A stretch of 28,538 nt of DNA from sequence record KM389306.1; one strand, written 5' to 3'. Below are positions 1 to 28,538 of the stretch, piece by piece. The stretch comes from Escherichia phage Phi06_2974 B. The notes beneath the pieces are model-generated. The model was not told where the DNA came from, did no database searches, and saw only the letters and a program-made list of their open reading frames with translations. The translations under genes and the position numbers were made by a program. How positions within the stretch are numbered: the stretch's first letter is position 1; every line of letters starts with the position of its first letter.

Positions 1-978
1 GGATAACTGACCAAAGCCCACCAGTTCAATTTTGTTGCCTGCTGTCAGTTGAGGTGTCCCCATCAGCGTCAGGGAGCCGTTCTGCTGGTATTCGTTATGT
101 CTGGCCAGCGCCGAATCTGCTTTAATCCGTGCGGTGTCCGGGTCGCTGACGCGGCTGTTGACCTTAAGTGAGTCGGCACTGGTGACCTTACCGCCTTTGG
201 TTTGTTTGTCGCTTTCGCTGGTACCGCCATCAGCTTCATAAACGATCAACTTTTTATCACTGCTCTTCTGGTGTTTTACCTTCGCGGATTTGTAGACGCG
301 GTTGATGGTGTCACGCAGGGAAAAACGGGCCACATCCTGCGGCTTAAGCTGCTTAACTGGCTCCTGACCGCGCAGCGTGGCCAGATGAGAAAAAACCAGC
401 TGGTCGCTGACCACTTTTACGGCATAACCATACTCGCTGGCCAGTCGACGCAGGAAACCCACGTCCGTTTCAGCATACTGGGTCACCCGGTCAATTTTGA
501 TGGACTCAATACTGCCAACCAGCTTCAGTTGATGCTTTTTGGCAATCCGTCCGGCGATGGCCGCCAGCGTGGTGCTCTCGAAACCACGACTGGATTTTGT
601 CCGCAGGGCGTTGTTGACCGACGTGGCCACGCCCCGGATAGCGACAACGGACGCGGGCGAACTCACCTCGATCTCGTCTATAGAGAACGTACCGCAGGAC
701 AGCAGCTTCTCGCCCTGATAACCCATTTTCAGCGTCAGCGTGTCACCCTTGCCCGGATACCACTTATCCAGCCAGCGGCCATCGGTGTCGTCCAGTTCCA
801 CCTCAATGGTATCGGACTCGCTTTTGATGTTATCGCTGTAGGTTACGCGGGTGACATAGGGGGCGATATCGGTGGTGATGTTCTTCTGCAGATACCATAG
901 CGTGAACACCGGACTCAGAACATCGCTGACGCCGGTTAACGCTGATGCGGCTTGTGCAGGGCTGTTTATCTCAGCCAT
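1..978 (-). CDS. baseplate hub / late control gene D-like tail protein (N-terminal part; gene runs off window start)
   Basis: Minus-strand frame hand-translated from ATG 978..976 (SD AAGAGGA upstream) stays open down to at least 541: MAEINSPAQAASALTGVSDVLSPVFTLWYLQKNITTDIAPYVTRVTYSDNIKSESDTIEVELDDTDGRWLDKWYPGKGDTLTLKMGYQGEKLLSCGTFSIDEIEVS...; absent from ORF track because no stop in window; follows gpU/gpX-like genes. Confidence 0.5.
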   Translation of the reverse strand, partial: MAEINSPAQAASALTGVSDVLSPVFTLWYLQKNITTDIAPYVTRVTYSDNIKSESDTIEVELDDTDGRWLDKWYPGKGDTLTLKMGYQGEKLLSCGTFSIDEIEVSSPASVVAIRGVATSVNNALRTKSSRGFESTTLAAIAGRIAKKHQLKLVGSIESIKIDRVTQYAETDVGFLRRLASEYGYAVKVVSDQLVFSHLATLRGQEPVKQLKPQDVARFSLRDTINRVYKSAKVKHQKSSDKKLIVYEADGGTSESDKQTKGGKVTSADSLKVNSRVSDPDTARIKADSALARHNEYQQNGSLTLMGTPQLTAGNKIELVGFGQLS

Positions 979-1178
979 GGGGCAATATCCTCTTCTGTAC
1001 TGGCTTCTTCAGCCTCGATAACCGGAATCAGTAACAACAGCCCGGAGGGCAGCACCGGCGTGATGGCCACGTGTGGATTGGCGGCAATTATCCGGGGATA
1101 GCCCAGCGGGTCGCCGTAGTACTGCCATGCGAGAGAGTCCCAGCGCTCTCCGTCACGGGTGACATGTTCAAGAAACAT
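966..1178 (-). CDS. tail protein X-like (small LysM-like tail protein)
   Basis: ORF track 966..1181 (first codon GTG; ATG at 1178 overlaps upstream stop); 70 aa with YYGDPLGY...AANP...LPSG motif pattern recalled for P2 gpX family; position between gpU-like and gpD-like genes. Confidence 0.45.
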   Translation of the reverse strand: MFLEHVTRDGERWDSLAWQYYGDPLGYPRIIAANPHVAITPVLPSGLLLLIPVIEAEEASTEEDIAPWLR

Positions 1179-2062
1179 CACACACTCCTCGCCAGAATTT
1201 TGGCTGCCATGGTGCTTAACCCCGGCGACATACGGGTGAAGGTGGTGCTGGCGGAGTTAAGCTGCCCGGAAACGGCATCCAGCGCCGCTGCGATATTGCT
1301 GCCGTCCACGCCGCTCAGTGAAGACTGTGCCTGTTGTACATACGTGGCCGCATCACTGGTGGCTCTGGCCAGACTGATGGCATCAGGCATGGATTCAGAA
1401 AGCGCATTAAATGCCGGAACGCTTTGACCCAACGCCCCGGACACGTTGCCCAGCCCGCTCATCAACCCCGGTACGCGGGTCAGTGCAACGGCGGGGTTAT
1501 CCTTCATTTTCTGCGCCACCCGAACGGCACTGATGGTGGTCTGGAGAACAGACTGCGCCTGTTTGGCGTAGTTGACGCCGTCGCGGACGTACTGCGCTAC
1601 CCCGGAAGGTGAAGGAACGGCACCGGAGACCGCCCCGACGCCGGGAACCTGCGTGCGTATTGCGGGTGGCTGTAGCGGGTTTTTCGGGTCGCCGATGTAC
1701 TCCCGGAGAGACGCGGTGGCATTGACGGCCAGCACGTTGCCGGTGCTGTCGGTCTGCTCGCTGGTCGCAGTAACATCGGTAATCACGAACCAGCCGCGAT
1801 AGTCACCGTTGCCGAAGACCAGCGCCAGCGCTTGATGGGCCTTCATGGCCGTTCGCAGTCTCGCCAGCTCCACGTCGGGCACACAATAGTGCTGATGGAA
1901 GACCAGGCTTATCTGGATTTCGTCCAGCTTATCGCCAACGAACTGCAGGCCGGGCTTACCCTCGATACGGGGATGCTCCGCATAATCGACGCCGAACGTG
2001 ACCTCGAAGCCGTCCCAGTAGGTAATCAGTTCAAACTCAATATCACCCAATACTGCAAACAT
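1178..2062 (-). CDS. tail protein U-like (N-terminal domain) with low-complexity Ser/Ala-rich C-terminal extension
   Basis: ORF track 294 aa; ATG at 2062 overlaps tape-measure stop; N-terminus MFAVLGDIEFELITYWDG...GWFVITDV resembles the gpU tail family as I recall it; gene order after tape measure. Confidence 0.45.
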   Translation of the reverse strand: MFAVLGDIEFELITYWDGFEVTFGVDYAEHPRIEGKPGLQFVGDKLDEIQISLVFHQHYCVPDVELARLRTAMKAHQALALVFGNGDYRGWFVITDVTATSEQTDSTGNVLAVNATASLREYIGDPKNPLQPPAIRTQVPGVGAVSGAVPSPSGVAQYVRDGVNYAKQAQSVLQTTISAVRVAQKMKDNPAVALTRVPGLMSGLGNVSGALGQSVPAFNALSESMPDAISLARATSDAATYVQQAQSSLSGVDGSNIAAALDAVSGQLNSASTTFTRMSPGLSTMAAKILARSV

Positions 2063-27519: not shown

Positions 27520-27937
27520 GCAGCGTCTTATTCAACTCATTCATATTGCCCGCAGCGACCTCCAGATGGATGAGGACACCTACCGCCAGATGCTACAGGG
27601 GCTGACCGGCAAAGCCTCAACCAAAGGGATGGATACCCCACAGCTAAACCGCGTGCTGGAATCAATGAAAAAGAAAGGCTTTCGCATTAAGCCTGCCGGG
27701 AAAGCCAAGTCCGGCTTACCGCTCGACAGCCATCCGCAGTCAAAGAAAATCCGTGCGCTATGGCTTGAAATGGCTGCCGCAGGCATCGTCCGTGACAGTT
27801 CAGAGCAGGCGCTGGCGCTGTGGGTTAAACGGGAAACCGGCATCAGCGCGTTACGCTGGCTCAGCAATGAGCAGGCAAGTAGCGTGATTGAGAAACTGAA
27901 GAAGTGGCAGCGCAGAGCTGCGGGAGTGAAGCAATGA
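27509..27937 (+). CDS. gemA: GemA-like regulatory protein (Mu gp16 family)
   Basis: ORF track 27320..27937 trimmed to ATG 27509 (SD AAAAGGAG); 142 aa MMTKQRLIQLIHIARSDLQMDEDTYRQML... resembles Mu GemA; directly upstream of Mor homolog as in Mu. Confidence 0.55.
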   Translation: MMTKQRLIQLIHIARSDLQMDEDTYRQMLQGLTGKASTKGMDTPQLNRVLESMKKKGFRIKPAGKAKSGLPLDSHPQSKKIRALWLEMAAAGIVRDSSEQALALWVKRETGISALRWLSNEQASSVIEKLKKWQRRAAGVKQ

Positions 27938-28323
27938 GCGACCTGAATCAGTTTCGTAGTAAAGGGCCGGAACTGTTGGTGGAACTGGCACAGCATACCT
28001 CTGAGACTGTCCGCGAGATTATTGATATCGAACCCGCAGTTGCCGACCAGATTGGTCAGGCCGTCGCGAACCGCATGATGCAGGTCTGGGGTGGGCAAAA
28101 CGTCTATTTTCCGATGGGCATGGTCTGGAAGGTCAGCCAGCGCGACCGGGAAATTTTCCTGGAGTTTGACGGGCGCAACCATCACGAACTGGCCCGCAAA
28201 TTTGGTGTTTCACTACAGTGGGTTTACAGCGTGGTGAAGCGGGTCAGAAAAGAAGAACTGGATCGGATGCAGGGCAAACTGTTTGATGGCGAACCTGATG
28301 CCGATACAGGGAAAAAGGAGTAA
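27934..28323 (+). CDS. mor: Mor/C-family transcriptional activator (middle/late gene activator)
   Basis: ORF track 27904..28323 trimmed to ATG 27934 (overlaps gemA-like stop); 129 aa with C-terminal HTH region YFPMG...ELARKFGVSLQWVYSVVKR typical of Mor/C family. Confidence 0.65.
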   Translation: MSDLNQFRSKGPELLVELAQHTSETVREIIDIEPAVADQIGQAVANRMMQVWGGQNVYFPMGMVWKVSQRDREIFLEFDGRNHHELARKFGVSLQWVYSVVKRVRKEELDRMQGKLFDGEPDADTGKKE

Positions 28324-28538
28324 TATCTGCAATCAGGCTGGTGCGAGTTCTGTTTTTTTCGGGCCGGTCTGATTTTCACATACTGTAAGGTTATTGCATA
28401 TTCCATCCAGTCTCTTCCCATGTTGACCCAGTACTTCCCATAATTATCTCACTTATCCCCTGTCATTTATCTCAAGTCTAATCACATGCCCTGACGCCAG
28501 AGAAGAGAGTACAGCATCATGCCCCGGTAATCACGGGT

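Follow-up and report, generated by a model that had tools for sequence, protein, structure and literature searches.

A BcepMu-type transposable prophage with divergent early and late blocks in the sequence of Escherichia phage Phi06_2974 B

The sequence record KM389306.1 of Escherichia phage Phi06_2974 B was analysed over its full 28,538 nucleotides (nt), hereafter called the window. With a probability of about 0.95, positions 1-28484 are the larger part (~83%) of a 34.3-kb temperate transposable myovirus prophage of the BcepMu type, which is nearly identical to prophages scattered in E. coli chromosomes. Its lifestyle is Mu-like, while its transposase belongs to a family different from that of Mu. 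The window contains 41 intact open reading frames (ORFs) with hardly any spacer between them: 24 late genes on the minus strand, 14 early genes on the plus strand and three genes in a central region. A first-pass annotation, made from the letters alone, had described a Mu-like prophage extending over 1-28538. Its divergent layout, with a late block running on the minus strand from the holin start codon at 18354 down to base 1 and an early block on the plus strand at 20488-28323, proved correct in coordinates and gene order when checked by ORF listing and translation. The extent of the prophage had to be revised, however. Phage DNA stops at 28484, and the last 54 bp (28485-28538) are non-phage DNA from a plasmid, which had passed unnoticed. 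The prophage is also incomplete, since the start of the window truncates it within tail gene D on the minus strand. In full copies and relatives, the ~5.9 kb beyond base 1 carry baseplate, tail-fibre and Gin-type invertase genes.

A megablast search of phage records with window positions 1-25000 returned Klebsiella phage KP12 clone KP12_2 (OM835952.1; 95% over 100%) and Escherichia phage PhiKM (PQ738613.1; 86% over 84%). BcepMu, phiE255 and other Burkholderia and Ralstonia phages matched in this search at the sheath and tube genes only. Among bacterial genomes, E. coli HH107 (NZ_CP116405.1) and CFS3292 (NZ_CP026935.2) aligned at 99.7% over the whole window as single high-scoring segment pairs (HSPs), with the differences concentrated in gpD and the tape measure gene; E. 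coli G5 (NZ_CP060065.1) aligned at 99.4%. At least 80% of the element is present in 81 of 5,426 complete E. coli genomes. At the protein level, tblastn matches were obtained for 30 of the 41 window proteins in BcepMu, all collinear, for 20 in Pseudomonas phage B3, for six in Mu (eight by BLASTP) and for six in D3112. BcepMu DNA could be aligned to 40.5% of the window at 68% identity, and all 14 blastn HSPs were collinear and in one orientation. The divergent layout is present in BcepMu, B3, PhiKM, KP12, the E. coli chromosomes and an Enterobacter kobei IncF plasmid. The earlier assignment of this layout to the BcepMu type was borne out, as BcepMu and B3 both show the divergent blocks with mor at the genome end. 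The records of Mu and D3112 are collinear, with the late genes of Mu following mor on the same strand.

Two other explanations of the divergence had been raised by the first-pass annotation itself. The first is that the two blocks are two different prophages lying side by side, to which the variant of a prophage next to a transposon was added here. It could draw on the a-priori oddity of the layout relative to Mu and on the AT-rich central region (46.7% G+C), yet it is close to negligible. BcepMu is matched by both blocks to a comparable degree, collinearly and in one orientation. The whole unit also moves as one, as each of four full copies at four loci is delimited by a single pair of TG...CA ends and a single 6-bp duplication. 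The layout is shared by the phage-record genomes of BcepMu, B3, PhiKM and KP12, and it is this occurrence in phage genomes (BcepMu, PhiKM, KP12), together with the single pair of ends, that excludes two adjacent elements. The second explanation, an assembly artefact in which one block of a Mu-like collinear genome was inverted, has nothing in its favour except the difference from Mu and is hardly credible. What excludes it is the identical arrangement in 81 independent complete E. coli genomes, in several phage records and in a plasmid record, along with the alignments to G5, HH107 and CFS3292, each of which spans the junction regions as one HSP with few gaps.

The absence of an integrase, from which transposition had originally been deduced, was confirmed, as no tyrosine or serine recombinase gene is encoded in the window. 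Stronger evidence came from the surroundings of related copies. Alignments of the right part of the window to 114 E. coli genomes all stop at 28484-28485, and the genes flanking the element vary among the aligned genomes (csgC, pgaA, gadC, rumB, ulaF, a porin and an aldolase). Four full copies, in E. coli G5, HH107, MSB1_9D and CFS3292, are 34.3-34.5 kb long, start with 5'-TGATGCGCCGCGCGATAAATG and end with ...ATTTATCTCAAGTCTAATCA-3'. Their insertions interrupt csgC, pgaA and gadC or fall in the yjfY-ulaF spacer. Perfect 6-bp direct repeats flank all four of them (CGAAAC, ATTGTC, ACCTGC and CGTTGC). Ten more copies, located via an identical Mor protein, had ten further different right flanks. 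In all, 15 near-identical copies showed 15 different right flanks. A strict C at target position 6, suggested by the first five insertions (5/5), was dropped when all flanks were considered (8/15), and the target bias over the 15 insertions amounts to at most a weak S-S-W-N-S-S tendency. Insertion is thus random in the near-identical copies, with duplications of 6 bp; the target duplication of Mu is 5 bp. Because different flanks and 6-bp duplications are found together with an intact DDE triad in the transposase, integration by transposition is established for this phage type beyond the mere lack of an integrase. For the copy in the window only the right junction is available, and CATGCC is the predicted target copy.

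The right end of the element, which lies in the window, contains paired subterminal repeats that are candidate transposase-binding sites: TTATCTCA occurs twice, 23 nt apart, and CTTCCCAT twice, 20 nt apart. The left end (TGATG...) lies outside the window and is known from copies that are at least 99.4% identical; left and right ends match at 15 of 21 positions. The end geometry is the same as in BcepMu, with its ends TGAAGAGAGGTGAGATATTTCC and TGAAGCGCGGCGCGATATTTCA, and the motif G[A/C]GATA(A/T)(A/T)T occurs twice, ~23 nt apart, in both phages. In the part of the literature dealing with them, BcepMu-related prophages are described with an rve-core transposase related to Tn552 and with 5'-TG...CA-3' termini (PMC2628397). 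At the left end of full copies (G5 locus 4273-7280, HH107 locus 32723-34916), a gene for a Gin-type serine recombinase was observed beside oppositely oriented pairs of tail-fibre and tail-fibre-assembly genes. By analogy, this arrangement looks like an invertible host-range segment comparable to the G segment of Mu.

The homologs common to Mu and the window (Mor, GemA, TerL at 47%, F at 48%, portal, G and gp36) could indicate a true Mu relative, either a Muvirus or a phage with Mu-type A/B machinery, that has been rearranged. This is very improbable. By tblastn on the window, no homolog of MuA, MuB, Ner, c, Gam, Kil, Mom or Com was detected even at E<=10 at the corresponding genes; for MuA and MuB, no tblastn match was better than E=0.08, none lay at the transposase or ATPase genes and BLASTP gave no match. 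The transposase carries an rve core only; among curated models, those of IS481 and IS21 match it best. In a sequence search of solved structures (PDB), it gave weak matches to retroviral integrase cores only, and the neighbouring ATPase gave generic P-loop matches only. The predicted catalytic triad D160/D254/E290 (D,D-35-E) of the transposase, which BcepMu gp09 and B3 ORF12 have conserved, can be aligned to retroviral integrase cores. The 6-bp duplication, against 5 bp in Mu, and the P2-type tail module also speak against a Mu relative. None of the traits that define Mu, namely MuA/MuB, a collinear order, a 5-bp duplication and a Mor-then-C cascade, is found in the element, which has the defining features of the BcepMu/B3-type clade; insertion at many sites with a short duplication, one of these features, was observed in the near-identical copies. 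Within this clade it was placed with BcepMu rather than with B3 because of its tail and lysis modules.

The possibility that the window represents a defective, immobile remnant instead of an active phage was also considered. The baseplate and tail-fibre end lies outside the window, and some relatives are frameshifted, as in the holin gene of E. coli MSB1_9D. All 41 ORFs of the window are intact, however, and copies that are at least 99.7% identical sit at different loci of unrelated strains, which implies recent movement. In addition, the close relatives KP12 and PhiKM were deposited as phage records. A remnant is therefore improbable.

The G+C content of the window is 56.0% (57.7% in the late block, 54.8% in the early block and 46.7% in the central region). 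E. coli chromosomes have 50.8% (PMC3032704). The first-pass annotation had judged G+C and codon usage to be enterobacterial; the G+C argument fails, being above that of E. coli, and the host call nevertheless holds, given the 99.7%-identical copies in E. coli chromosomes. Scans of the window for tRNA genes, Rfam families and tandem repeats found nothing.

From the gene content, the following course of events is proposed. In the lysogen, the central helix-turn-helix (HTH) repressor (19989-20399) would shut the divergent early promoter (candidate at 20416-20443). Upon derepression, the plus-strand early operon would be expressed, delivering a small HTH regulator, the rve-type DDE transposase, the ExeA-like AAA+ ATPase, accessory proteins, GemA and lastly Mor. 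The transposase would bind the paired subterminal repeats at the TG...CA ends and, together with the ATPase, insert the genome at essentially random targets with 6-bp duplications; lytic replication would probably be replicative transposition, by analogy with Mu. A single Mor/C-family activator would then directly switch on the minus-strand late operons in trans, in a two-tier cascade. No second Mor/C gene was found in the window or in a full copy. Of the late genes, the lysis set (holin, SLT endolysin, Rz/Rz1) would come first, followed by terminase, portal and head of Mu type and by the contractile tail of P2 type. If activation acts in trans, it does not matter which way the late block is oriented with respect to mor, and the divergence needs no special explanation.

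Likely targets of Mor are promoters with the 15-nt motif TAA[A/C]GC-N3-TTAAAA upstream of the holin and protease/scaffold genes. This motif occurs exactly twice in the window, against 0.13 copies expected. In BcepMu, where 0.04 copies are expected, there are likewise exactly two, at the starts of the same two genes, and PhiKM shares these positions. The motif may be regarded as a candidate Mor-dependent late-promoter element. A full prophage copy also has two-mismatch versions in further intergenic gaps of its late block, which were too degenerate to be called. One of the two motif copies lies in the spacer between the G-like and protease/scaffold genes (the G-I spacer), which also contains a conserved hairpin. 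Among the window, KP12, PhiKM and BcepMu, the motif and hairpin islands are invariant, while the rest of the spacer has diverged. The G-I spacer is situated at the midpoint of the 34.3-kb prophage, which is the position of the gyrase site in Mu.

Some observations weigh against the assignment made here or against parts of it. The left end of the element lies beyond base 1, and neither the target duplication nor the completeness of this copy is visible in the window. The rve score of the transposase (31.4 bits) is just under the Pfam gathering score of 32.6. The ATPase has no sequence similarity to MuB; its role as functional counterpart of MuB was deduced from its conserved position beside the transposase and from the PHROG and BcepMu annotation. 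The gene order around it, with the ATPase beside the transposase, DUF3102 upstream and DUF3164 downstream, is the same as in BcepMu. The 'ner-like' label given earlier to the first early gene suits its position and its being a small HTH protein, but lacks sequence similarity to Mu Ner and is weak, with HTH_35 at 16.7 bits against a cut-off of 25 bits. B3 has no obvious copy of the late motif upstream of its holin gene. Finally, the ICTV genus criterion is ~70% nucleotide identity over the genome, and nucleotide similarity to BcepMu is ~28%, which makes strict membership in Bcepmuvirus doubtful; GenBank files PhiKM under this genus.

The 54-bp flank was identified as an internal fragment of traI, the conjugal transfer lipoprotein gene of IncI1 plasmids, with the junction directly behind codon 219 of 272. 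The R64-type transfer region includes both TraI and the ATPase of traJ, which lies downstream. Judged from this flank, the present copy, or at least the sequenced molecule, appears to be inserted in traI of an IncI1 plasmid. The junction was absent from exact-match scans of genome_contigs, viral_contigs and metagenome_contigs, and it is spanned by none of the PLSDB plasmids and RefSeq E. coli records. A paper on E. coli W, with IncI1 plasmid pRK1 and a Mu-like prophage, was consulted and set aside, as it describes no plasmid insertion. A complete copy of the phage type, with a 98% identical transposase, was found at 56.5-91.2 kb of the E. kobei plasmid NZ_CP043512.1, a 142.5-kb IncFIA/IncFII conjugative plasmid, and 23 of 72,556 PLSDB records carry a related transposase. 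Since plasmid-borne copies of this phage type exist, residence in a plasmid is not unprecedented.

The flank could nonetheless be explained without a stable plasmid prophage, as host DNA packaged at the end of the virion genome, as a transient insertion during the lytic cycle or as a chimeric contig end. In the assembled record of PhiKM, a stretch annotated as a host-type gene (an Fe2+ ABC transporter permease) lies between the phage ends; moreover, the flank in the window has only 54 bp and the junction is in no other public record searched. On the other side, the junction falls exactly at the canonical phage end 28484, as real transposition predicts, the flank is a clean match (53/54) inside traI, and plasmid-borne copies are known, for instance that of the E. 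kobei IncF plasmid. Such an explanation of the flank has a substantial chance, clearly below even, and whichever holds, the junction is the trace of a real insertion into an IncI1 plasmid that at least some of the template molecules carried. A more novel reading is tentative and falls just short of an even chance: the copy would be stably resident in IncI1 traI, the G-I palindrome would be the BcepMu-family counterpart of the strong gyrase site of Mu, and TAA[A/C]GC-N3-TTAAAA would be a Mor-type late-promoter element. If the phage is indeed plasmid-resident, a transposable phage would ride a widely spread plasmid backbone and would probably disable the transfer of that plasmid.

The features of the window are collected in Table 1. 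Domain scans of the window proteins were run with Pfam, PHROG and NCBIfam, and percentages are amino acid identities to the proteins named.

Table 1. Features of the window in KM389306.1, in order of position.
Feature	Position	Strand	Evidence and remarks
gpD-like tail protein, late control D family	1..978	-	C-terminal end cut by window start; 51% over 320 amino acids to BcepMu gp47; full gene in KP12 and E. coli G5
gpX-like	966-1178	-	P2-type tail; 59% to BcepMu gp46
gpU-like	1178-2062	-	P2-type tail; 46% to BcepMu gp45
Tape measure protein	2062-4527	-	P2-type tail; 43% to BcepMu gp44
GpE-family ORF overlapping the chaperone, +1 frame (not -1)	4620-4757	-	RefSeq 'GpE family phage tail protein' at equivalent position
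Tail assembly chaperone	4723-5037	-	30% to BcepMu gp41
Small conserved protein	5136-5417	-	PHROG 1239
Tail tube	5420-5941	-	68% to BcepMu gp40
Tail sheath	5941-7368	-	79% to BcepMu gp39
Four head-tail connector genes	7358..8877	-	Homologs of BcepMu gp38, gp37, gp36, gp35; 45-53%
Major head protein	8888-9841	-	44% to BcepMu gp34
Head protease/scaffold, Mu I/Z equivalent	9855-10952	-	49% to BcepMu gp32
G-I intergenic spacer	10953..11166	-	Motif TAAAGCAGATTAAAA and conserved hairpin
Candidate late-promoter motif TAAAGCAGATTAAAA	11024-11010	-	In G-I spacer, ~72 nt upstream of protease/scaffold ATG
Hairpin GGGGCTGTATTACCTTTATAAAGGCTTTACAGCCCC	11122-11087	-	16-nt core TTTATAAAGGCTTTAC at 11108-11093
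G-like	11167-11625	-	44% to BcepMu gp31; 30% to Mu G
F-like	11628-12449	-	62% to BcepMu gp30; 48% to Mu F
Portal	12430-13926	-	62% to BcepMu gp29; 28% to Mu
TerL	13926-15449	-	62% to BcepMu gp28; 47% to Mu
TerS	15446-15994	-	67% to BcepMu gp27; 23% to Mu
Two small conserved proteins	15991..16627	-	Homologs of BcepMu gp26 (57%) and gp25 (47%)
Rz-like spanin	16624-17277	-	33% to BcepMu gp23
Rz1 lipoprotein, 88 amino acids, +1 frame within Rz gene	16928-16662	-	Lipobox AVSC; proline-rich; 39% to BcepMu gp24
SLT endolysin	17267-18004	-	Pfam SLT E=2e-14; 60% to BcepMu gp22
Holin	18004-18354	-	Pfam Holin_2-3 E=1e-41; 54% to BcepMu gp21
Candidate late-promoter/activator motif TAACGCTGTTTAAAA	18407..18421	-	~67 nt upstream of holin ATG
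Dam-family N6-adenine DNA methyltransferase	18602-19372	+	Pfam PF02086 (D12 methyltransferase) E=1e-27; TIGR00571 117 bits (cut-off 114.85)
Lipoprotein	19420-19953	-	Signal peptide; lipobox L-S-G-C at residues 14-17; PHROG 10002 (unknown function)
Cro/CI-type HTH repressor, putative immunity repressor	19989-20399	-	Pfam HTH_3 E=3e-12, Phage_CI_repr E=2e-6; NCBIfam DicA/RstR-like
Candidate early promoter, Pe equivalent	20416..20443	+	TTGACA, 16-nt spacer, TACAAT; 11/12 sigma-70 consensus positions; consensus match only
Small HTH protein at Ner position	20488-20712	+	HTH_35 below cut-off; weak PHROG matches
IclR-type winged HTH protein	20709-21014	+	35% to BcepMu gp12; 58% to B3 ORF14
DUF3102 protein	21024-21932	+	40% to BcepMu gp10; 50% to B3 ORF13
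DDE (rve-type) transposase	21936..23705	+	68% over 581 amino acids to BcepMu gp09; 57% to B3 ORF12; Pfam rve E=2e-7; PHROG 310 'transposase' E=8e-145
ExeA-like AAA+ ATPase, transposition accessory protein	23716..24882	+	60% to BcepMu gp08; 55% to B3 ORF11; Pfam AAA_22 E=3e-20; PHROG 296 'DNA transposition protein' E=2.5e-89
PHROG 2041 protein	start 24885	+	First of the accessory genes 24885..27519
DUF3164 protein	25172-25783	+	44% to BcepMu gp05
Three small ORFs including MazG-like fragment (26335-26631)	within 24885..27519	+	Pfam/PHROG scans
DUF2786/DUF7168 protein	26618-27307	+	Pfam/PHROG scans
71-amino-acid ORF	within 24885..27519	+	Last of the accessory genes
GemA	27509-27937	+	Pfam GemA E=4e-41; 47% to BcepMu gp02; 36% to Mu GemA
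Mor/C-family late activator	27934-28323	+	Pfam Mor E=1e-42; 53% to BcepMu gp01; 30% to Mu Mor, 35% to Mu C
Right prophage end	28414..28484		Terminates ...GTCTAATCA-3' (…AATCA) at 28484
Internal traI fragment (IncI1 conjugal transfer lipoprotein gene)	28485..28538		53/54 bases match ~1,345 IncI1 plasmids including ColIb-P9

The repressor, lipoprotein and methyltransferase of the central region, as named in the first-pass annotation, were recovered by Pfam, by the lipobox and by Pfam and TIGR00571, respectively. The repressor occupies the position of BcepMu gp17 and B3 ORF18. No Pfam match was obtained for the lipoprotein. BcepMu lacks a homolog of the methyltransferase, whose identity to B3 ORF48 is 65%. 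The region 18355-20487 is AT-rich and mosaic (its G+C is 46.7%, that of the early and late blocks 55-58%), and KP12 contains an extra gene of ~0.9 kb between holin and dam, at window position ~18427-18458, where the E. kobei copy has a DUF2441 protein. The candidate early promoter ends 45 nt 5' of the first early gene, and the first three early genes (20488-21932) matched PHROG 8503, 925 and 769.

In the late block, a head and packaging module of Mu type is combined with a contractile tail of P2 type. TerL, portal and F match both BcepMu and Mu, and the BcepMu gp36 homolog is 29% identical to Mu gp36, while sheath, tube, tape measure, U, X and D match BcepMu genes annotated as equivalents of P2 FI, FII, T, U, X and D. 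The chaperone and GpE ORFs (4620-5037) overlap and are likely a programmed frameshift pair; frame analysis found no classical slippery heptamer. The embedded Rz1 gene is unannotated in the fetched records of this phage (KP12 and RefSeq prophage copies).

The element is of an already-known kind, because Bcepmuvirus-type prophages have been reported in E. coli, Salmonella and isolates from the gut, including gut Pseudomonadota. Descriptions of BcepMu-type transposable prophages go back to 2004, and reports in E. coli and Salmonella are routine. In E. coli this type is common, and the one unusual trait of the present copy is its apparent location within an IncI1 transfer gene. As near-identical copies are already public in genomes and phage records, the element carries little weight as a finding. 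Its value is primarily in annotation: the window can be labelled confidently and bounded on the right at 28484, and the genes called ExeA-like or 'IclR family' can be recognised as phage genes of transposition and regulation, not host functions. Of modest use are the apparent natural insertion into an IncI1 transfer gene, as an example of interference between phage and plasmid, the 6-bp target duplication for this transposase family, and two short intergenic elements kept from Burkholderia to E. coli phages, one of them a late-promoter candidate and the other a candidate central site placed like the gyrase site of Mu.

Compared with known systems, the prophages of E. coli G5, HH107 and CFS3292 and the phages KP12 and PhiKM are essentially the same phage, with the same gene order and ends. 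They differ in the insertion site, which appears to be IncI1 traI here and is csgC, gadC or the yjfY-ulaF spacer in the E. coli relatives, and KP12 has, besides its extra gene between holin and dam, a different right end. BcepMu (NC_005882), described by Summer et al. in 2004 as cited in PMC2628397 and PMC7302871, shares the divergent blocks, an immunity region in the centre and the position of mor at the end of the genome. Also shared are the rve transposase, ExeA-like ATPase, DUF3102, DUF3164, GemA and Mor of the early block, the holin, SLT endolysin, Rz with embedded Rz1, Mu-type head and P2-type tail of the late block, and, at the DNA level, the TG...CA ends, two subterminal repeats 23 nt apart and the late motif upstream of the holin and protease genes. 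The central accessory genes are different (gp18-gp20 in BcepMu, Dam and lipoprotein here), and several of the early accessory ORFs show no relationship. At the end where BcepMu encodes an acyltransferase, the full copies have a Gin-type invertase together with a tail-fibre segment that looks invertible.

B3 (NC_006548) shares the divergent architecture, the early module (transposase 57%, ATPase 55%, DUF3102 50%, winged HTH 58%), the lysis and packaging (head) genes and Dam (65%). In contrast, it has a siphovirus tail without homologs here, and its Dam gene lies in the tail region next to a Com-like gene. With Mu (NC_000929), the element has in common the temperate transposing lifestyle, the homologs of GemA, Mor/C, TerL, portal, F, G and gp36, and a central intergenic region between G and I, where the strong gyrase site of Mu is located. 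Mu differs in its collinear order, in MuA and MuB, which are unrelated by sequence to the proteins found here, in its Mor-then-C cascade against one activator, in its 5-bp instead of 6-bp duplication and in its tail modules.

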